Positions 5,674 through 60,152 of a stretch of 64,000 bases of DNA are shown in pieces; positions within the stretch are counted from its first letter, which is position 1; every line of letters starts with the position of its first letter. The notes beneath the pieces were generated by a model. That model saw only the letters and a list, made by a program, of their open reading frames with translations. It made no database searches and was not told where the DNA came from. The translations under genes and the position numbers were made by a program. The DNA is from Pseudomonadota bacterium (GTDB lineage Bacteria > Desulfobacterota > Binatia > Binatales > Binataceae): the NCBI GenBank assembly GCA_021324855.1, contig JAJPIG010000022.1:185777-249776 (forward strand), in the 5' to 3' direction.

Positions 5674-6930
5674 CTAACCACCTGGCTGCTGCCGATAAAG
5701 CGGCGGCTTTGGATTGTTTCCCGCGGCCTCGTTGACGGTCGCCCCGTTGGCAGCGGGATCGCGACCGATGGTGCTGAGCGGGCAGATCGCCGGGACGTCA
5801 TCGAGCACGTCCTCCCCCGCCATCACCACCACCTGGCCGAGCGGCATCCCGGCTTCGACGTGACCGGCTATAACCGCGGGAATTTCATACTGAAGATGTA
5901 TATCGTGAACGCTATCCTTGCGCACCACCACGCTCACGGGATGCGCAACGACTGGATAGATCAGCGCCCCTGAATCGGTCCGCACGTCGACCGGCAGCGG
6001 CTGCCCGCCCTTCAGCACAGGCACGCGAGTGAAGTTGTCGAAGCCCCATTCGAGGAAACGTGCGGCCTGCGCAAAGCGCTGGGCGTTCGATGGAGCGCCG
6101 AGCACGACCGCGATCAACCGCATGTCGCCGCGCCGGGCGGTCGCGGTCAGGTTGAAGCCGGCGCGGAACGTGAAGCCGGTCTTGAGGCCATCGCAGCCCT
6201 CGAAATGACCAATCAGATGGTTGGTATTATGGAGCATCGCCACGCCGCCATCGAACGATGTTCTCTCCAGCCCCGACCAGCCGAGCAGGTCGGTATGATA
6301 GATGAGCTCACGGGCAAGCGTTGCGAGATCGCGGGCGCTCGTGAAGTCAACGTCGTGAGCGGGAGTGGGAGGTAGGCCGTCGACCGTCTGATATTCAGTC
6401 GCGGTCATCCCGAGCGCTCGCGCACGAAGGTTCATCAGACGGACCGTGTTTTCAACCGAACCGCCGACAGCCTCGGCCACCGCGACCGCGGCGTCATTTG
6501 CCGATCGAATCAGCGCGGCTTTCATCAACTCGCCGAGGGGATAGACCTGACCTTCGCGCAGCCCGAGGCGCGATCCTCCGGTGAACGCAGCGCGCGCCGA
6601 AATCACCACCGGCTGGCTCAGCCGGACGCGTCCGGCCTTGATCTGATCTTCAGCGACCAGCAGCAGCATCATTTTGGCCATCGAGGCCGGCGGCCATACG
6701 AGGTCCGCGTTTTCCTGATACAGAATCCGTCCCGAATCAGCATCCTCAACCAGCACCGCATGATAGAGCGGCGCGTTGCTCGCGGCCGCTCTGTGATGCG
6801 AACGATGGTGATGATGCGTGTGGGTTGAGCGCGATGCGAATACCGGCCGCGCCATGAACGGCGCGAGCGCGACCATCAGGGCCGCCGCGATACCACGATA
6901 GAAAATCAGCCGCCCATCCAAATCCGCCAC
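5674..6930 (-). CDS. dacC: D-alanyl-D-alanine carboxypeptidase (PBP5/6-like serine peptidase) with a His-rich tract after the signal peptide
   Basis: SxxK (SMAKMM), SxN (SAND) and KTG (GLKTGFT) motifs. Signal peptide. Unusual THTHHHHRSHHRAAAS segment near the mature N-terminus. Confidence 0.85.
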   Translation of the reverse strand: MADLDGRLIFYRGIAAALMVALAPFMARPVFASRSTHTHHHHRSHHRAAASNAPLYHAVLVEDADSGRILYQENADLVWPPASMAKMMLLLVAEDQIKAGRVRLSQPVVISARAAFTGGSRLGLREGQVYPLGELMKAALIRSANDAAVAVAEAVGGSVENTVRLMNLRARALGMTATEYQTVDGLPPTPAHDVDFTSARDLATLARELIYHTDLLGWSGLERTSFDGGVAMLHNTNHLIGHFEGCDGLKTGFTFRAGFNLTATARRGDMRLIAVVLGAPSNAQRFAQAARFLEWGFDNFTRVPVLKGGQPLPVDVRTDSGALIYPVVAHPVSVVVRKDSVHDIHLQYEIPAVIAGHVEAGMPLGQVVVMAGEDVLDDVPAICPLSTIGRDPAANGATVNEAAGNNPKPPLYRQQPGG

Positions 6931-6961: not shown

Positions 6962-7669
6962 TTACGGCGTCCGAGTCAAACTCTCGGAATTCTCCCTCGC
7001 CGAGAAGGCGCGTCCCTGTTCAGCCTGACGCAAAAGTGCCAGATTCTCGCGCGCTGGGGAATAGTCAGGCGCCGAATCGGCCAACTCCTGCCATTCAGCG
7101 CGCGCGCGCGAGTAGTTTCCCTCCTCGGCGTAAATTACGCCGAGCTGATTACGGGCATCGACCTGCAATGGATCGAGACGGAGCGAAAGCAGGATTTCCT
7201 GCTCGGCCTGCTTGAGCTTGCCGCGCCGCTCATAGGCGATTCCGAGATTGTAATGGGTCTCCGGGTGCTCAGGCGCGAGCAAAGTCGCGAGCTGAAGTAC
7301 GTCGATCGCTGTGTCGGGCTGGTTGATTTCGAGATAGAGCAGCCCAAGGTTCAGGAACAGATCCCAATCGCTAAGGCCCAGGCGCACGGCAGCCTGGTAT
7401 TCGCTCAGTTCCTGCCGATGCTCTCCGATCAGGCCCTCCGCGAAACCGAGATGATAATGCGCAAGCGCGTTGTCTGGATGCTCTTTGATCACTTCCCGAT
7501 GCCGCCGGATCGCTTCCGGATAATTCTCCATCCCGAGGTAGTAGTCCGCGAGCGGATCGCAAACCTGTGGCTCGGAGACGGCAGCCGGAGCTGGGCGAGC
7601 TTCGAAGGGCCGTTGAAACATCAACGACGACAAAAGAAGCACTATGACGAGCCAACGGCGGGTCGCCAA
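6962..7669 (-). CDS. Secreted TPR-repeat protein
   Basis: Signal peptide MATRRWLVIVLLLSSLMF, then several 34-aa TPR-like repeats (AHYHLGFAEGLIGEHRQE..., THYNLGIAYERRGKLKQA...). Confidence 0.7.
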   Translation of the reverse strand: MATRRWLVIVLLLSSLMFQRPFEARPAPAAVSEPQVCDPLADYYLGMENYPEAIRRHREVIKEHPDNALAHYHLGFAEGLIGEHRQELSEYQAAVRLGLSDWDLFLNLGLLYLEINQPDTAIDVLQLATLLAPEHPETHYNLGIAYERRGKLKQAEQEILLSLRLDPLQVDARNQLGVIYAEEGNYSRARAEWQELADSAPDYSPARENLALLRQAEQGRAFSARENSESLTRTP

Positions 7670-7769: not shown

Positions 7770-7843
7770 CGCCAGACGAAAAAAATTACTGAAACATAAT
7801 GCGAGGCCGGCCGCCATCGACGTTCGCGTGGCCGGCCGGCCTC
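7770..7843 (-). terminator. Rho-independent terminator candidate for the His-rich protein gene (possibly bidirectional)
   Basis: Perfect 11-bp GC stem GAGGCCGGCCG (7803-7813) pairs with CGGCCGGCCTC (7833-7843). On the minus strand a U-rich tract follows (GCAUUAUGUUUCAGUAAUUUUUUU); on the plus strand ATGGTTTTG follows. Confidence 0.45.
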
Positions 7844-7860: not shown

Positions 7861-8166
7861 TTACGGATTGGTTCCGCCGCTCGTTCCACCAGTCGCAGGC
7901 GCCGCCGGAGCGCCCGCGCCCTCAGTGCCAGTTGCGGCTTTCTCCTTGGCCTTGTGATGATGCTTGCGCCAGTGATGGTGATGATGCTTCGTCGTGGTCT
8001 TGGTCTCCGGCGCCATTTTGCCGCCACCGGACGGCGCAGCCTCGGAGGACGACGCTGCGGGCGCTGCAGGGGCGCCGCCCGCGGCCCCCGTATCTTGCGC
8101 AAACACCGGCACTGCCATCGCGCCGGCGAATACCGCCGCTGTCATCACTGAAAGGACCCGTTTCAT
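7861..8166 (-). CDS. Small secreted His-rich protein (about 101 aa)
   Basis: Start MKRVLSVMTAAVFAGAMAVPVFAQD is a signal peptide, with AGGAG nine nt upstream of the ATG. Gly/Ala/Pro-rich body with a TKHHHHHWRKHHHKAKEK cluster. The longer ORF-track N-terminus (MEKRGSL...) is probably not translated. Confidence 0.6.
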   Translation of the reverse strand: MKRVLSVMTAAVFAGAMAVPVFAQDTGAAGGAPAAPAASSSEAAPSGGGKMAPETKTTTKHHHHHWRKHHHKAKEKAATGTEGAGAPAAPATGGTSGGTNP

Positions 8167-8402
8167 CTGAGGAATCTCCTTGTGGTTTGGGCGGCCCATA
8201 AGCGAACCGCGCTTTTCCAAGCTTCAATCAAGCGAACTTTGTGCCATGGGAAAACAGTCCAGATTATTGGACCTTTCCACCGGTTCCGCCTCCACTCTAT
8301 CGCAATACGTAGAAGCATGCATCCGCTTTAAGTAGAATTTCTAATCGCATGATGGGCTAAGATTCGCAATAGCTTGCGGATCAATTTTTTGGATCCGATG
8401 GC

Positions 8403-9167
8403 CTAACCAGCGCGGCGACTGCGCCGCGCCTCCAATCGCAGCTCACTATACAGAGCGAAAAGTTCGCGGAACGCGCGCATCACGACGCGCAGATTCGCGC
8501 CCGACTGCTCGCCGACTCGACGCGGCAAATGACGCACATCGACTTCCCGGAACCGTGCGCCGCGTCCTGCCATCCGCGCAAGCAATTCCGCCGAAATCAT
8601 CGCGCCGCTTGCACGCAGCTTGCCGGGGTCGATCAAATCGCGCTTGAAGAGTTTGAAGCCGCAATCGACATCGCGCGATCGAATGCCGAACAACAGCCGC
8701 ATCAGAATGGTCCACGCGCGGCCGTTAAGCCGGCGCGTCAGCGGATCGGCGCGATGTACGCGATGCCCGATGATCGCGTCGAAGCGCCCAGCGTACGCCG
8801 CCATCGTGACGACGTCAGCTGCGTCGAACTGCCCGTCGCCATCGCAGAGCATCAGCCATGGCTTGGTGGCTGCTGCGATTCCGGAGATCACCGCGCCTCC
8901 GTATCCACGATTGCGCTCATGATGCACCACGCGCACGTGAGAATCGGCCTGGGCCAGCCGGTCGGCGATTTCGCCGGTACGGTCACGGCTGCCGTCGTCA
9001 ACCACGATGATCTCATAGTCGCGCGCCACGCGCGGCAGGACCGCAGTGAACCCCGCGATCACCCGCTCGACGTTACCCTCCTCGTTGTGCGAGGGCAGGA
9101 AGACGCTTAAGCCTTCAAGCGGCGGAGCCGGCGCAGCCGACCCCTCCGGCGGCGATGATTCATCCAC
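8403..9167 (-). CDS. Family 2 glycosyltransferase (dolichyl-/polyprenyl-phosphate sugar transferase-like)
   Basis: LSVFLPSHNEEGNVERVI...YEIIVVDDGSRDRT...NRGYGGAVISG...DGDGQ is the GT2 DxD/DGS architecture. The start is placed at GTG 9167, after the flavin reductase stop. The upstream part of the ORF overlaps that gene. Confidence 0.75.
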   Translation of the reverse strand: MDESSPPEGSAAPAPPLEGLSVFLPSHNEEGNVERVIAGFTAVLPRVARDYEIIVVDDGSRDRTGEIADRLAQADSHVRVVHHERNRGYGGAVISGIAAATKPWLMLCDGDGQFDAADVVTMAAYAGRFDAIIGHRVHRADPLTRRLNGRAWTILMRLLFGIRSRDVDCGFKLFKRDLIDPGKLRASGAMISAELLARMAGRGARFREVDVRHLPRRVGEQSGANLRVVMRAFRELFALYSELRLEARRSRRAG

Positions 9168-9816: not shown

Positions 9817-10605
9817 TTGGTGCGCATCATGATTGACCGGGCGATGGGCTGGCGGCGGAATAGGAAGCTGATGGTTTGGGCGGCGCTTGCGCTCGGTATC
9901 CTCATGGCGTTGGCGGGAGCGGTGCATGCCTTCGCTGCATCGACTGCGGCCCCAAGCGTCACTGCCACGGCCGCTCCAACCATCGCTGCAACGCCGATTG
10001 GGGCTCCAGCGCCGACTTCCAGCGCCACGGCCTCGGCAACGCCGAGCGCAGCCTCGAATCACAGCGTCAACTCGATTGTATCCGCAATCAACCCGAAAGA
10101 AACACCCGGCGTGATCGCGTTGCTGCAGACCACGGACGGTTCCGAGCGCAATCCCGATAACTGGGTAGTGAGAGTCTACAAGTCGCACCATCAGCTGGTC
10201 GTCTTCTACAAAGGTCGATTGTACCGTTCATATCGCGCAGTGTTCGGCCGAAATCTCGATACCAGCGCCAAAGTTTTCGCAGGTGATCGCCGCACGCCCG
10301 AAGGCGCGTATTTTATCATCAGCAAGTATCCGAGCCGCCGATGGCGATACTTCCTCAAACTGAATTATCCCAACATGATTGATCTGTCACGTTTCGAGGA
10401 ATTGCGTGCCGCACATGAGATCCCGACCGTCGGTGGGCGCCATGCGGACGCCGGCGGCGCGATCGGGATTCACGGTACCGATGTTCCGGTTCTCAATGAG
10501 GGGAACGTCAATTGGACGACGGGGTGCATCTCCGTTGACAACGGCGCGATCGATGAGCTCGAAGCGCTGCTGCCGGTCGGAACTCTGGTCGTGATCGAAC
10601 CTTGA
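9817..10605 (+). CDS. L,D-transpeptidase (YkuD domain) with a signal-anchor and Ala/Thr/Pro-rich linker
   Basis: Catalytic His/Cys motifs IGIHGT and TTGCISV. N-terminal hydrophobic segment plus an ATP-rich linker. Confidence 0.8.
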   Translation: MVRIMIDRAMGWRRNRKLMVWAALALGILMALAGAVHAFAASTAAPSVTATAAPTIAATPIGAPAPTSSATASATPSAASNHSVNSIVSAINPKETPGVIALLQTTDGSERNPDNWVVRVYKSHHQLVVFYKGRLYRSYRAVFGRNLDTSAKVFAGDRRTPEGAYFIISKYPSRRWRYFLKLNYPNMIDLSRFEELRAAHEIPTVGGRHADAGGAIGIHGTDVPVLNEGNVNWTTGCISVDNGAIDELEALLPVGTLVVIEP

Positions 10606-26106: not shown

Positions 26107-26523
26107 TTACGGCGTGGCCGGAGCAGGGGCCGCTGGAGCAGGCGCAGGCGCTGCAGCGCCGGTCTCAGCCGGGGCGGAAGCCTTTGCCGCATGGCGACGG
26201 TGACGATGGTGCACTACATGATGCACGTGATGTCCGCCCATCGACGTCTTTGCAGCAATTGCTTCGGCTCGATCAGCCGCTGCCTTCGCATCGGCCGAGG
26301 CCTGCTCGACGCGGGTCGCAGCCGCCTGGGCCTGCTGGGCCGCCGCCTGGGCCTTCTCCGCCGAAGCTTCAGCCGCTTGGGCTGACTGCTGGGCCTGGTT
26401 GGCCGCATTCATTGCCTGCTGTGCCGGATCGGGCGATTGCGAACAGCCCGCCAGCATAGTCAGGCCAAGAGCAAGCCCGGCCATCCCGACCAGCTTCGAA
26501 GTTCTACCCATGAACCCTTCCAT
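26107..26523 (-). CDS. Braun-lipoprotein-like alanine-zipper lipoprotein with His-rich and Ala/Pro-rich C-terminal extension
   Basis: Strong SD AAGGAGG. Lipobox LTMLAGC. Coiled-coil AQQAQAAATRVEQASADAKAAADRAEAIA resembling Lpp. Then GGHHVHHVVHHRHRRH and APAPAPAAPAPATP. Confidence 0.65.
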   Translation of the reverse strand: MEGFMGRTSKLVGMAGLALGLTMLAGCSQSPDPAQQAMNAANQAQQSAQAAEASAEKAQAAAQQAQAAATRVEQASADAKAAADRAEAIAAKTSMGGHHVHHVVHHRHRRHAAKASAPAETGAAAPAPAPAAPAPATP

Positions 26524-26712
26524 CCTTTTCCTCCTTGCTACGCTCAGCCAGGTTCGAAACTACGGAAAAACTTTTCAATCTGAGTTTGCCCGCAAAAAAA
26601 TACCGTTGCAAGCCTACAGAATCTCGGCAAAGCTCGCAACGCGCGCTTGTCACCAGAGTTTGACTTTACGACATTCGACGCTGTCCGGTATGGTGACGTT
26701 CCGCGGTAACCG

Positions 26713-28410
26713 CTAGAAGTCGTCGTCCCCCATACCGCCCATACCTCCCATGCCGCCCATATCGCCCATACCTCCCATACCTCCCATGCCGTGATCATGG
26801 CCATGGCCGTGCGGCATCGCCGCGGGTGCCTTGGGTTTCGGCTTCTCGACGATGGCCGCTTCGGTGGTGATAAGAAGGGCGGCTGCGCTCGCCGCGTTTT
26901 CCAGGGCGGAGCGCACGACCTTCACGGGATCGATCACACCCGCCTTGACCAGGTCTTCGTATTCGTCAGTGCGGGCATTGAAACCGAAATCACCCTTGCC
27001 TTCCGCAACGCGATTGAAAACGATCGACGGCTCGAAGCCGGCATTCGCAGCAATTTGGCGCAACGGCTCACTCATCGCGCGACGGACGGCGTCGGCTCCT
27101 GCCTTCCACTCGGATGCGACCTTGAGATTCTCTACTGCCCGCGATGCTCGCAACAGCGCGACTCCGCCGCCGGCGACAGTACCTTCTTCAACGGCGGCGC
27201 GCAGCGCATGGACGGCGTCATCGACCCGCGCCTTTTTCTCTTTGAGTTCGACCTCGGTCGCGGCGCCGACTTTGATAACCGCAACGCCGCCTGCGAGCTT
27301 CGCCAGCCGCTCTTCGAGCTTCTCGCGATCGTAATCCGAAGTGGTTTCCTTGATCTGCGCACGGATCTGTTCGACGCGTGCCTTGATATCGGACCTTTTG
27401 CCGGCGCCATCGACCAGCGTGGTGTTGTCCTTGTCGATGATCACGCGACGGCATCGGCCGAGATCCTCGAGCTTGACGTTCTCGAGCTTCAACCCGAGCT
27501 CTTCGGCGACCACGCTGCCGCCGGTGAGAATCGCCATGTCAGTGAGCATCTCCTTGCGCCGATCGCCGAAGCCCGGCGCCTTGACTGCAGCGACTTTGAT
27601 GGTGCCGCGGAGCTTGTTGATCACCAGGGTGGCGAGCGCCTCGCCCTCGACATCCTCGGCAACGATCAACAGCGAACGGCTGCTCTGCAGCACGCGTTCG
27701 AGCAGCGGAACCAGCTCGCGCAGATTGGAGATCTTCTTCTCGTGGAACAGGATAAGCGGCTCATCGAGCTCGACCGTCATCCGCTCGGGGTTGGTAACGA
27801 AATAAGGCGAGAGGTAACCGCGATCGAAGCGCATCCCTTCAGTGAGATCCAGCACGGTCTCCATCCCGCGCGCCTCTTCGACCGTGATCACGCCTTCTTT
27901 GCCGACCTTGTCCATCGCGTCGGCGACGATTTTGCCAATCTCAGCCTCGCCGTTGGCGGCGATCGTCGCCACCTGAACCATCCGCTCATGATCGCGCACC
28001 GGCCGCGCCTGCTCCTTGAGGGCGGCGACGGCAGCCGTGACCGCCGCCTCTATTCCGCGCCGAAGATCGATTGGCGGAAGTCCGGCTGCGACCAGGCGTA
28101 TCCCTTCGCGCACGAGCGCGCGGGCGAGAACAGTCGCGGTCGTCGTGCCATCGCCGGCGACGTCGGACGTTTTTTGAGCAACCTCGCGAATCAGCTTGGC
28201 TCCGAGATTCTGAAAGCGATCCTCGAGCTCGATCTCCTTGACCACGCTCACTCCGTCCTTGGTGACGAGCGGAGCGCCGAAGCTGCGCTGAATTAAAACG
28301 TTGCGTCCTTTGGGGCCCAGGGTGACCCGGGCGGCTTCGGCTACCAGCGTGGCACCGGCAACGATACCGGTGCGGGCGTGCTCATGAAGTTCAACCTGTT
28401 TGGCGGGCAT
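26713..28410 (-). CDS. groEL: Chaperonin GroEL (60 kDa), orphan copy without adjacent groES. C-terminal His-rich plus GGM tail.
   Basis: Full-length GroEL similarity ([38 protein letters not shown]). Tail [33 protein letters not shown]. No GroES-sized ORF within 400 bp upstream. Confidence 0.93.
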
Positions 28411-28595: not shown

Positions 28596-28982
28596 ATGGA
28601 ACCATCCAAGTCGGCCCGAATTCGCGATTTGATAATGGCCGGAACGATCCTGGTCTCGGTTCTGATCCTGTTCGCCGCGGTCGCGTTCCGCTCGGGTGCG
28701 TTCGGCCCTTCGAGTGCCTTCACGCAGGACTCCGATGAAAGCGTCAGCGATAACGATACCGTTCCGCCCCAGCAGGTCGAGAAATATGTCGCGGTGTACC
28801 GGGCAATGCAGCGGAACCACAGCCTCACCGTTGAGCAGGCATGCGCCCAGCAAGGCCTGACTGTCCCCGTTTTCCGGGGCATCGAACGTAAAATTGAGCG
28901 GAACGATCAGCTCAGGAACCGGGTGCGCGACGAATTGCAGCGGAAAAACTCTCCACCGAACCCGTCACGTACTGCTCCGTAG
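28596..28982 (+). CDS. Hypothetical single-pass membrane protein
   Basis: N-terminal TM LIMAGTILVSVLILFAAVAF, then a hydrophilic domain (QQVEKYVAVYRAMQRNHSLTVEQACAQQGLTVPVFRGIERKIERN). Preferred over the overlapping minus ORF 28443-28853, which has no features. Confidence 0.4.
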   Translation: MEPSKSARIRDLIMAGTILVSVLILFAAVAFRSGAFGPSSAFTQDSDESVSDNDTVPPQQVEKYVAVYRAMQRNHSLTVEQACAQQGLTVPVFRGIERKIERNDQLRNRVRDELQRKNSPPNPSRTAP

Positions 28983-29076: not shown

Positions 29077-29358
29077 TTACTTCGTTACCGAGCTGGAGAA
29101 CTCAGCTTCGAGTCGCGCAACCGCGTCGTTAGCCCGGGCCACAGCAGCCTGCGCCGCGTTCGCGCCGTCGTCAGCCTGCTTAGCTGCCGTTTCAGCCTGG
29201 TTGGCCGCGTTCTCCGCGTTTTGGGCGGCCGCCTGAGCCCGCGTCGCTGATGCTTGCGCCGATTGCGTCGATTGATTGATCGCGTTCATATCCGGCCCGC
29301 AAGCGCTCATCACGGTCGCCGCGGCGAGAACTCCACAGAGAGTCAGCAGCTTCTTCAT
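29077..29358 (-). CDS. Braun-lipoprotein-like alanine-zipper lipoprotein ending in a C-terminal Lys
   Basis: Lipobox TVMSAC. AAVARANDAVARLEAEF is comparable to E. coli Lpp AARANQRLDNM. Ends ...SSVTK like Lpp, whose terminal Lys is the peptidoglycan-linking residue. SD GGGAGGAA. Confidence 0.6.
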   Translation of the reverse strand: MKKLLTLCGVLAAATVMSACGPDMNAINQSTQSAQASATRAQAAAQNAENAANQAETAAKQADDGANAAQAAVARANDAVARLEAEFSSSVTK

Positions 29359-57848: not shown

Positions 57849-60152
57849 ATGGATCGATATCAGCATATATCGAGCCAGTTTTATGGCAATCGGCTCCTCT
57901 TCGGCGACCCGAGTGAGGATTCGATAGTCGCGCTCGAAATCGCGTCGCCGACCGAGGTTGAAATCTTCCGCCGCCGCCATGGCGAGTTAAGCCGCGAACG
58001 CCGGCCATTGAGATTGTTTCTGCTGCTCGCCGATCGCGAGCTGATGAAAGGAACACGCATCCCCCACGAGACCGTCGAGATGGCGGGCGATTTCCGCTTC
58101 CGCTACCTCGTGAGTTTCGGTTCCACCGCCGGGCTGGAGAGCGCCAAGCGCCACCTCCGGAACGTTTCGGGGAAGGCTGCCAGCGCCGCCGATGCGCCAT
58201 ATTTCGTACTGAGCGACCCGATCGAACAGCACCTGATGCTCACCGGTTCAACTTTCTTCATCGGGCTCAGTTTCCAAGACCTGCGCCGGATGCAACTCGA
58301 TATCGAGACCTACACCAGCAGCGGTTTCGAGTTCGCCTCCGCCGGACGCGAAGGCGACCGCATCACGGCCATCGCGATCACCGACTCAACCGGTTACGAG
58401 CGCGTGCTCGACGGCCATAAGACGGACGAGCGGACGATGCTGGAAGAGCTGGTGCAAATTGTCAATGAGCAGGACCCCGACGTGATCGAAGGTCACAATC
58501 TCTTCCGCTCGGACCTCGAATATCTGGAACAGCGCGCGCGGCGGCACAAACTCAAGCTGGCGCTGGGCCGCGACGGCAGCGTGATGCGCGCGCGGGCTTC
58601 GCGGCTCCAGATCGCCGAGCGCACGATCGCCTACCGGCGTTACGAGATCTATGGCCGCTCGGTAATCGACACTTGGATCCTTGCGCAGTTCTATGACATC
58701 GCGAGCCGCGAGCTCGAAGGTTTCGGCTTACGCGAGCTGGCCGAACATTTCCGGATCGCGGGCCCCGATCGCGTCTATCTCGATCCCGCCCGCATGAGTC
58801 ATTACTTCGATCGCGAGCCTGAGCTGCTGATGCGGTCGGCGCTCGAAGACGCGCGCGAAGCGGGCGCGCTCGCTGCGCTGCTCGCGCCCAGTTACTTCAT
58901 TCAGGCACAGATTTTCCCATACTCGTTCCAGAATGTAGTGCTGCGCGGCAATGCGACGCGCATCGATGCCCTGCTGATACGGAACTACCTTGCCGCGCGC
59001 CATTCGATTCCCGCACCCGCCGAGCCCTCCGAGGTCGCCGGCGGATACACCGAGATGCGCCGCTGCGGCGTAGCGCGCGGCGTACTGCATTGCGATGTAA
59101 CGTCGCTTTATCCCTCGCTGATGCTCCAGTACGGGTATGCGCCGCAGAACGATCGGCTCGGCGTTTTCCTCAAGATGCTCGCTGATTTGCGCCGCTTTCG
59201 AATCGAGGCGAAGGCGGCCGCTGCCGAAACCAGCGGCGCCGAGCGCCACAATTTGGACGCGATGCAGCAGACCTTCAAAATCCTGATTAACTCGTTTTAT
59301 GGGTATCTCGGTTTCGCGCTCGGCCACTTCAACGATTTCATTGCAGCCAATAACGTCACGCGTCAGGGCCGCGATTTGATCCAGAAGGCGATCGGCGTCC
59401 TCGAAGGCGCCGGCGCGCAAGTGATCGAATGTGATACCGACGGGATCTATTTCGTTGCGCCTTTTGCATTCGAAGATGCGGGCGCGGCCGAGGCGCTGTT
59501 GGAAAAAGTCGCTGCGGCGATGCCTGAGGGAATCCGGCTCGAAATCGACGGGCGTTATCCGGCGATGTTCTCATACAAGATGAAGAATTACGTCCTGCTC
59601 GATGAAGACGGCACGACCACGATTCGCGGTTCGGGCCTGCGCTCGCGCGGGCTCGAACGCTTCCAGCGCCGTTTCATGGAGGATTTTTTCCATCGCTTGC
59701 TATCCGATCGGCGCGACGAAATTCCGGCTCTCTACGACGATTATCGCCGTCGGATCGAAAGTCACGAATTCAGTATCACTGACTTGATGAAGACCGAGAC
59801 CATCCAGGATTCGCTCGAGGTCTACCGTCAGAAAATCGCGGCGAAGCGCCGCAATCCCGCCGCCGCATACGAACTCGCGCTCAAGTCCCAGCGGCCGTTT
59901 CAGAGCGGCGATCAGATCTCGTACTACGTCACCGGCCGGGGCGCGCGCGTCAAGGTCAATGTAGCCGCGAAAATGGCATCCGAGTACGACCCCGCCAATC
60001 CCGACGAGAACGTTGAGTATTATCAGGCCAAGCTCGCGGATCTCTACGAAAAGTTCCGGCCGTTTGCCGACCGGCCGGGTCTGTTCCCCGCCGATGCTCT
60101 CGAGCGTGGCGAAGAACCGGCGCAGCCCGGAATTTTTGACGGCCAGAAATAG
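57849..60152 (+). CDS. polB: Family B DNA polymerase (DNA polymerase II-like, with 3'-5' exonuclease)
   Basis: Exo I LDIETYT. Exo II block DPDVIEGHNLFRSDLEYL, comparable to E. coli Pol II DPDVIIGWNVVQFDLRML. Motif A DVTSLYPS. Motif B KILINSFYGYLG. Motif C CDTDGIY. KxY variant YKMKNY. 767 aa. Confidence 0.88.
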   Translation: MDRYQHISSQFYGNRLLFGDPSEDSIVALEIASPTEVEIFRRRHGELSRERRPLRLFLLLADRELMKGTRIPHETVEMAGDFRFRYLVSFGSTAGLESAKRHLRNVSGKAASAADAPYFVLSDPIEQHLMLTGSTFFIGLSFQDLRRMQLDIETYTSSGFEFASAGREGDRITAIAITDSTGYERVLDGHKTDERTMLEELVQIVNEQDPDVIEGHNLFRSDLEYLEQRARRHKLKLALGRDGSVMRARASRLQIAERTIAYRRYEIYGRSVIDTWILAQFYDIASRELEGFGLRELAEHFRIAGPDRVYLDPARMSHYFDREPELLMRSALEDAREAGALAALLAPSYFIQAQIFPYSFQNVVLRGNATRIDALLIRNYLAARHSIPAPAEPSEVAGGYTEMRRCGVARGVLHCDVTSLYPSLMLQYGYAPQNDRLGVFLKMLADLRRFRIEAKAAAAETSGAERHNLDAMQQTFKILINSFYGYLGFALGHFNDFIAANNVTRQGRDLIQKAIGVLEGAGAQVIECDTDGIYFVAPFAFEDAGAAEALLEKVAAAMPEGIRLEIDGRYPAMFSYKMKNYVLLDEDGTTTIRGSGLRSRGLERFQRRFMEDFFHRLLSDRRDEIPALYDDYRRRIESHEFSITDLMKTETIQDSLEVYRQKIAAKRRNPAAAYELALKSQRPFQSGDQISYYVTGRGARVKVNVAAKMASEYDPANPDENVEYYQAKLADLYEKFRPFADRPGLFPADALERGEEPAQPGIFDGQK

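Follow-up and report, generated by a model that had tools for sequence, protein, structure and literature searches.

Three exported proteins encoded in a single 64,000-nucleotide stretch of DNA (contig JAJPIG010000022.1; this whole stretch is referred to below as the window) carry short histidine-rich basic blocks, and comparison with their orthologues leads us to favor, tentatively, the view that the property selected in these periplasmic blocks is a pH-titratable positive charge and not metal coordination as such. The three are a small secreted protein of 101 amino acids (open reading frame 7861-8166, minus strand), an alanine-zipper lipoprotein (26107-26523, minus strand) and a DacC/PBP5-type D-Ala-D-Ala carboxypeptidase (5674-6930, minus strand). 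The observations behind this view are the fixed position of the blocks, a trade-off between His and Arg or Lys, the predicted disorder of the lipoprotein tail, a promoter motif upstream of the small gene, and the acidic habitat of the group. Judged by its sequence, the window belongs to Candidatus Binataceae, phylum Binatota; its carboxypeptidase shares 77-81% identity with the nearest species representatives and 57-67% with about 30 further Binataceae or Binatus genomes.

A preliminary description of the window had pointed to four His tracts, three in these exported proteins and one in a GroEL paralogue, and each was found at its given place inside a real reading frame. The core of the small protein (KHHHHHWRKHHHK, 7951-7989, minus strand), the lipoprotein block (HHVHHVVHHRHRRH, 26191-26232, minus strand) and the carboxypeptidase block (THTHHHHRSHHR, 6790-6825, minus strand) reach 8 His in 13, 8 in 14 and 7 in 12 residues, a density of the kind that marks metal-binding poly-His proteins; export of the three proteins was judged by eye from signal-peptide and lipobox features. 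Among the 55 window proteins (18,970 amino acids, 2.0% His) three clusters with at least 5 His in 12 residues were observed, and 2000 within-protein shuffles gave an expected number of 0.04. Within the tracts His is encoded by both CAT and CAC, at a ratio close to that of the rest of the genome, and no DNA tandem repeats were found in the exported tracts. The excess over the shuffles, the mixed codons and the lack of repeats together exclude chance and indicate that the observation is real. Since only one other in-frame His cluster was found outside the three families in about 720 kb to 1 Mb of related Binataceae loci (CHDHGDVHSDHHR, locus L028, 524-562, minus strand), nothing points to an enrichment of His clusters across the proteome as a whole.

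The small protein consists of a signal peptide (residues 1-24, cleaved after ...PVFA and before Q), an arm rich in Ala, Pro, Ser and Gly, the basic His core, and a low-complexity tail. The identical protein was found on 8 soil metagenome contigs, and syntenic orthologues were found in 31 Binataceae loci, upstream of dacC and of a gene for an exported TPR protein that separates the two (6962-7669, minus strand). The gene order is conserved as GT2, small gene, TPR, dacC, kdsB, pyrG, kdsA, lptC and lptA; the small gene was also sought in five distant Binatia loci and was not found there. Two protein searches returned 46 and 149 family members, all without annotation, the only match named by organism in its source being from Binataceae. 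A Pfam scan of the window protein and 29 family members gave compositional noise alone (LCE, New_glue, and Collagen for GATGATG tails), and by sequence the protein represents an unannotated family that reaches the cut-off of no curated model. Its signal peptide (MKRTLSVLSAAFFAAALAMPAFAQ) is kept among orthologues, and in the mature protein the sole feature kept is the central block, typically K-HHH-R-HHH-KK and usually of 9-10 residues, which is present in every intact orthologue and in all intact members among the 46 matches of the first search. Within this core His ranges from 2 to 15 (15 in L009) and Arg plus Lys from 0 to 8, the two being inversely related, with variants that span KHHHHHHHK to KRKHRRHKK, and the Ala/Pro/Ser/Glu arms and tails around it vary freely. 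The mean net charge of the mature proteins is +0.4 when His is counted as neutral and +6.8 when it is counted as protonated.

The same pattern is seen when the three exported families are set side by side. In each, the block has a fixed position and a near-constant length (31 small proteins, 33 carboxypeptidases and 68 lipoproteins were compared), and the low-complexity sequence that flanks it turns over. His number falls as that of Arg plus Lys rises, with Spearman coefficients of -0.57 for the small protein, -0.60 for the lipoprotein and -0.54 for DacC (kinship ignored), and when scaled to the mean, the sum of His, Arg and Lys is less variable than His alone. Replacement of His by Arg or Lys can be read directly from pairs of blocks such as KHHHHHHHK and KRKHRRHKK, or GGTHHHHWVHHMHHHMHH and SPRGGRRSYRRHRK, and blocks that are poor in His are nonetheless kept in orthologues (KRKHRRHKK, RKRKHRRHKK, SPRGGRRSYRRHRK, QWVRVRPRAHSRR). 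The exported blocks have Lys and Arg at their flanks and contain virtually no Asp, Glu, Cys or Met. Moreover, genomes with more His in DacC tend to have more in the small protein as well (rho 0.72, n=31, kinship ignored), which suggests a common pressure on the two.

Comparison with orthologues had been proposed earlier as a check, and for the three exported proteins it showed the tracts at the same position across Binataceae; since they are kept, we regard them as a selected, lineage-specific feature of the envelope and not as low-complexity drift. That the blocks are slippage-prone filler without function is, for these three proteins, very improbable, and on sequence grounds neutral drift is here largely refuted. 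Such an origin could draw on the wide range of His number and on the tails adjacent to the blocks, which are hypervariable and in some species are built of true DNA tandem repeats (in L017 a 9-nucleotide repeat present 12 times, 8788-8895, encodes a GATGATG collagen-like array at the end of the small protein). However, it does not agree with the fixed position and near-constant length of the blocks over 31, 33 and 68 orthologues, with the mixed codons and the lack of repeats in the tracts themselves, or with three clusters where 0.04 were expected.

Metal buffering or delivery, the envelope function suggested in the preliminary description, would require the blocks to capture Ni, Zn, Co or Cu within the periplasm, where they might serve as a sponge against the greater solubility of metals in acid soils or as a supply to envelope enzymes. 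Runs of His are familiar metal ligands, as in His tags and in Hpn. Those of 5-15 His should be good ligands, and His-rich regions occur in ZinT, ZnuA and CopI (PMC13308877); the conservation of the tracts in orthologues and the co-variation of His counts between two proteins of one genome fit this reading as well. Nonetheless, the block persists in many orthologues that have hardly any His in it; the number falls to 0-2 in some, with Arg and Lys filling the block, so that His is not retained as an essential ligand would be. In addition, the neighbors of His are Lys and Arg, not Asp, Glu, Cys or Met, and at the acidic pH typical of the habitat (PMC8262859) protonated His would bind metals weakly. 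Neither the window nor the syntenic loci yielded a metal transporter, a metal sensor or regulator, or a metal riboswitch. Thus, what stands of the earlier suggestion is a lineage-specific envelope feature, while the part on metal buffering or delivery is not borne out by composition, substitutions and gene context. Because most lineages prefer His and the clade of the window has expanded it, we keep metal binding at a lower rank, as a reading that is possible but rather doubtful.

The carboxypeptidase is a clear member of Peptidase_S11 (PF00768, E 2e-55; 188 bits, cut-off 27.6) and also matches the NCBIfam models of DacA/DacC/DacD type, with a weak PBP5_C domain. Its block lies directly after the signal-peptide-like N-terminus, between the cleavage region and the first conserved carboxypeptidase motif, in a linker of about 20-30 residues that is basic in 33 of 33 Binataceae orthologues (mean His plus Arg plus Lys 10.2). 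Across these orthologues the linker contains 1-12 His and 3-9 Arg plus Lys, and on average 0.3 Asp plus Glu; the window, L007, L009 and L045 form the His-rich extreme with 8-12 His, and QWRRVHKSGHSKRSARA is an example from the Binatus clade. The block was not found in L040 and L041, the two scorable Binatia from outside Binataceae, where the linker is acidic or neutral. Like PBP5 and PBP6 (DacA/DacC), the window enzyme has the Peptidase_S11 catalytic domain and a weak PBP5_C, but unlike them it has no evident C-terminal amphipathic anchor, as judged by eye. We know of no N-terminal basic His linker of this kind in PBP5 or PBP6 of E. coli.

The lipoprotein family (41 protein matches and 79 metagenome loci) follows one plan, in which a lipobox (LAGC in the window) is followed by a single long Ala/Gln helix ending in the invariant DAKAAADRAEAIAAKT, the basic block directly after it, and a Pro/Ala tail ending in PAPATP. 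In the AlphaFold2 model of the window protein, residues 33-96 form a helix with a predicted local distance difference test (pLDDT) score above 90, whereas in the tail that follows, residues 97-138 with the block included, pLDDT is below 50; the block is therefore predicted to sit in a disordered tail after a confident helix. In 68 non-identical tails His ranges from 0 to 11 and Arg plus Lys from 0 to 10, the extreme blocks having 11 His with no Arg or Lys and 1 His with 7 Arg or Lys. With Braun's lipoprotein (Lpp/OprI, NF040598) the protein has in common the lipobox, the single long Ala-rich helix and a weak profile match (19.6 bits, E 1e-3, below the 43-bit cut-off). It differs in that the C-terminal Lys for peptidoglycan attachment is not there; in its place are the basic His block and a PATP end, the sequence closing with ...PAPATP in nearly all orthologues.

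These features bear on another alternative, in which the blocks are a constitutive electrostatic tether to peptidoglycan or membrane at any pH, a substitute for the Lys by which Braun's lipoprotein is covalently linked and for the C-terminal amphipathic anchor of PBP5, and in which His is accidental and arises by CAY to CGY mutation. Arg/Lys-rich variants occur in all three families, the His-bearing lipoprotein is without the C-terminal Lys that a neighboring 93-residue paralogue has, and DacC is without an obvious amphipathic helix at its C-terminus (by eye), all of which a tether would explain. We nevertheless consider it improbable, both as a general account and as a replacement for these two anchors, since His is dominant in most lineages and reaches 8-15 per block in the clade of the window, and in the free small protein there is neither an enzyme nor an anchor for a tether to serve; the promoter described below, which implies conditional use, does not agree with it either.

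Several further observations concern the lipoproteins. The 93-residue protein is a second Ala-rich lipoprotein (29077-29358, minus strand) with a conserved ...SVTK end and orthologues in L089 (6580-6861), L090 (6903-7184) and L091 (6975-7250); its fit to the Lpp/OprI model is closer than that of the His-bearing lipoprotein (E 1.9e-8, 34.7 bits, cut-off 43), and by sequence it is the likelier analogue of Braun's lipoprotein. A gene for an L,D-transpeptidase of YkuD type is located at about 9817-10605. Upstream of the His-bearing lipoprotein, about 70-90 nucleotides from its start, a small conserved inverted repeat was noted at about 26590-26625 (minus strand) and again in the upstream regions of L096-L117, reading TTTGTGAGACAAA in most loci and TTTGCGGGCAAA in the window; it may be an operator. 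A sequence search of the PDB with the lipoprotein family returned His-tag and low-complexity artefacts only. The small-protein and lipoprotein families have tail types in common, as well as a ...PAPATP or ...PANP end: (Gly-Ala-Thr)n tails encoded by 9-nucleotide repeats occur in the small proteins of L015, L017, L019, L029 and L032 and in the lipoproteins of L158 and L164, and AGAAAGAEAG-type tails occur in both proteins of other species. This common composition and these tail types prompted the idea, since set aside, that the small protein arose as a lipoprotein tail copied and detached from its helix; profile-profile comparison of the two families found no relation past the signal peptide.

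Transcription of the small gene appears to start from a promoter of the sigma-54 kind. A -24/-12 element of this type (TGGCACAAAGTTCGCT, 8231-8246, minus strand) lies 64 nucleotides upstream of its ATG, with the -24 GG and the -12 GC at the canonical spacing of TGGCAC-N5-TTGCW, and it is the single match to TGGCAC-N5-TNGCW in the 64-kb window. All 31 orthologous loci have a TGGCA(C/T)-N5-NNGC(A/T) element, 49-74 nucleotides upstream of the small-gene start. The element is not common to the lipoprotein gene, where it was found in 1 of 71 loci. Farther upstream, alignment and motif listing revealed a conserved block (TAAAGCGGAT...ACGTATTGCG, 8301-8330, minus strand) that in the Binatus clade takes the form of an imperfect inverted repeat, ACGCAAAGCGG-N11-CCGATTGCGT. 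This palindrome (CGCAAAGCG...CGATTGCG) could be the site of an enhancer-binding protein, a function that we infer; no gene for such an activator was found in the window or the syntenic flanks. Between the promoter and the strong ribosome-binding site (AAGGAG, 8176-8181, minus strand, seven bases before the ATG) lies a GC-rich hairpin of the 5' untranslated region (8191-8210, minus strand), for which RNAalifold on 20 orthologues gave 6 pairs, 4 of them with compensatory changes. As an Rfam scan around the small gene matched no family, there is no indication of a metal riboswitch at this gene. A consensus scan for terminators and sigma-70 promoters yielded nothing useful on the minus strand, and a hairpin past the stop codon, at about 7803-7843, was identified by eye.

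Taken with the blocks, the promoter allows the following scheme of titratable charge to be proposed. The three tracts would be short, intrinsically disordered basic blocks. Since the periplasm tracks the outside pH, His would become protonated in acid soil, and the block would turn into a polycation able to bind anionic envelope material (peptidoglycan carboxylates, lipopolysaccharide, phospholipid head groups) or client proteins. The 101-residue protein would be a free-standing form, a secreted disordered chain like Asr of E. coli (compared below), whose net charge might go from about 0 to about +7, and it would be made only once an enhancer-binding protein is activated, as transcription from a sigma-54 promoter needs such a protein in its active state. 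The lipoprotein block would stand at the end of a lipid-anchored helix of about 64 residues, roughly where Braun's lipoprotein has its peptidoglycan-linked Lys, and the DacC block would act as the N-terminal linker of a peptidoglycan enzyme; both plausibly face the peptidoglycan. Binatales are reported to favor acidic peat, bog and forest soils (PMC8262859), in keeping with this scheme.

Several points weigh against titratable charge as the selected property. Arg or Lys would suffice if charge alone were important; that most lineages clearly prefer His, with as many as 15 residues in L009, fits a pH switch, but it fits metal binding just as well. The likeness to Asr is one of composition, and its scores stay under all curated thresholds. 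E. coli asr does not depend on sigma-54, so its regulation differs from that of the small gene. Furthermore, the sigma-54 promoter recalls that of zraP, the gene of a metal-induced periplasmic protein of E. coli, and to that extent counts in favor of metal binding. The correlations of His with Arg and Lys, like the habitat contrast, were computed without correction for shared ancestry. Finally, protonation in vivo, the binding partners, and any role in acid stress are what we infer from sequence.

The fourth tract, which had been grouped with the exported ones, belongs to an orphan GroEL paralogue (26713-28410, minus strand; Pfam Cpn60_TCP1, E 2.4e-74) that has no adjoining GroES gene. It reads PHGHGHDHG, just ahead of the GGM repeats (26788-26814, minus strand), and is weaker than the others, with 4 His in 9 residues and a different, His-Gly-Asp chemistry. 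Of 61 syntenic GroEL C-termini, only four (L094, L092, L102, L103) have His ahead of the GGM tail, as QGHDHG in L092 and GHAGHGHG in L102 and L103; the rest read PAMPPGGMGGM, and those of L089-L091 are without His. The His-rich tail is thus not the stable family trait that it is in proteins of GroEL1 type, and the GGM tail is intact. Because the protein is cytoplasmic and the tract is present in 4 of 61 orthologues, it has to be kept apart from the three exported tracts, and the earlier grouping does not hold. HGHGHDH is classical metal-binding chemistry and could be cited in favor of a metal function, but 57 of 61 orthologues lack the motif; the tract is best described, from its distribution, as a separate, weak and recently acquired feature of about genus level, for which neutral low-complexity drift remains the best reading. 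The order GroEL then lipoprotein is conserved in related loci, and in all those examined the paralogue is flanked by two alanine-zipper lipoprotein genes on one side and a DUF4168 gene (28596-28982) on the other. On the plus strand, at 57849-60152, there is a gene for a DNA polymerase of family B, with DNA_pol_B and exonuclease domains.

Weaker matches to the small-family profile are small secreted Lys/His-rich proteins of other lineages. In eight such distant matches that were scanned, Asr was the best NCBIfam model in every case (E 1e-3 to 1e-7, 19.5-32 bits, below the cut-off; for more distant relatives E 1e-5 to 1e-7 and 25-32 bits). Five distant loci could be placed on contigs, and in four a -24/-12 element lies 42-55 nucleotides upstream of the likely start (L172, about 1328-1343; L174, about 890-905; L177, about 2939-2954; L178, about 1185-1200); given a background of 0.019 per 300 nucleotides, such a count has a P of about 7e-7. 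The sigma-54-like string upstream of P0176 (L173) is weak and has the wrong spacing, and was left uncounted. These sequences hint at a wider class of basic secreted proteins under sigma-54 control. It is conceivable, though we regard the whole of it as doubtful, that one His-dominated charge-switch module, set in a disordered chain rich in Ala and Pro, has been placed in three Binataceae envelope proteins, in at least two of which His content changes in step from genome to genome, that its free-standing form belongs to a wider sigma-54 controlled, Asr-like class, and that this points to an enhancer-binding-protein pathway sensing periplasmic pH or envelope charge. If true across lineages, the sigma-54 link would give this regulon, of which little has been mapped beyond Proteobacteria, a new class of targets. 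As Binatota are uncultured and abundant in acidic peat and forest soils, the small-protein family and its promoter offer a concrete gene to follow in soil metatranscriptomes, and the natural block variants provide a simple set of peptides for comparing pH-dependent with metal-dependent binding. More generally, exported poly-His tracts are not automatically metal sites, as Arg and Lys can replace His in the orthologues described here.

Like the exported blocks, Hpn/HspA, GroEL1, ZraP, the loops of ZinT/ZnuA, CopI and SilE/PcoE all contain His clusters, and a periplasmic location is common to the exported proteins and ZraP, ZinT, CopI and SilE. The blocks differ from these metal-binding proteins in that they are flanked by Lys and Arg, their His is replaceable, and no metal genes are nearby; the tracts of Hpn, HspA, SlyD, ZnuA and GroEL1 are also set apart from them by their content of Asp, Glu, Cys and Met. 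In Pfam and NCBIfam profile scans the window proteins matched none of the listed metal-binding His-rich families. The likeness to Hpn, HspA and GroEL1 that had been drawn for all four tracts applies to the GroEL paralogue, whose His-Gly-Asp motif HGHGHDH resembles the GroEL1 and HspA tails, and not to the exported blocks with their Lys/Arg flanks and lack of Asp, Glu, Cys and Met. A short cationic His/Lys/Arg segment whose charge, like its binding to membranes and metals, varies with pH is likewise present in histatin-5 and similar cationic His-rich peptides, but these are eukaryotic secreted antimicrobial peptides with no homology to the window blocks.

Among known proteins the closest resemblance is to Asr, with differences in block structure and regulation. 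The only NCBIfam matches of the window small protein were "His-rich protein BRANT" (E 0.025, 15.6 bits, cut-off 44) and, below it, Asr (NF033636, E 0.076, 13.8 bits, under the 50-bit cut-off), and the Binataceae member P0088 reached 19.8 bits against the Asr model; a BLASTP comparison of the small protein with Asr of E. coli produced no alignment. The asr gene is dependent on PhoB and RstA, whereas the small gene has a sigma-54 type promoter. Asr has three repeated Lys-rich blocks and is dominated by Lys, whereas the small protein is dominated by His and has one central block, as nearly all of the 31 orthologues do. In the account given in PMC10746267, which refers to Ren et al. 2022 and to Seputiene et al. 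2003, Asr is a disordered periplasmic chaperone of E. coli that is acid-induced about 1000-fold and whose action is governed by net charge. The two proteins are nearly equal in size (102 amino acids for Asr, gene b1597, and 101 for the small protein), and both would have a Sec signal peptide followed by a disordered, Thr/Ala/Pro-rich basic chain with His/Lys blocks, a net positive charge that grows at low pH, and a link to acidic environments (PMC10746267, PMC8262859). Matched below threshold only, Asr would seem to be the nearest known analogue of the small protein.

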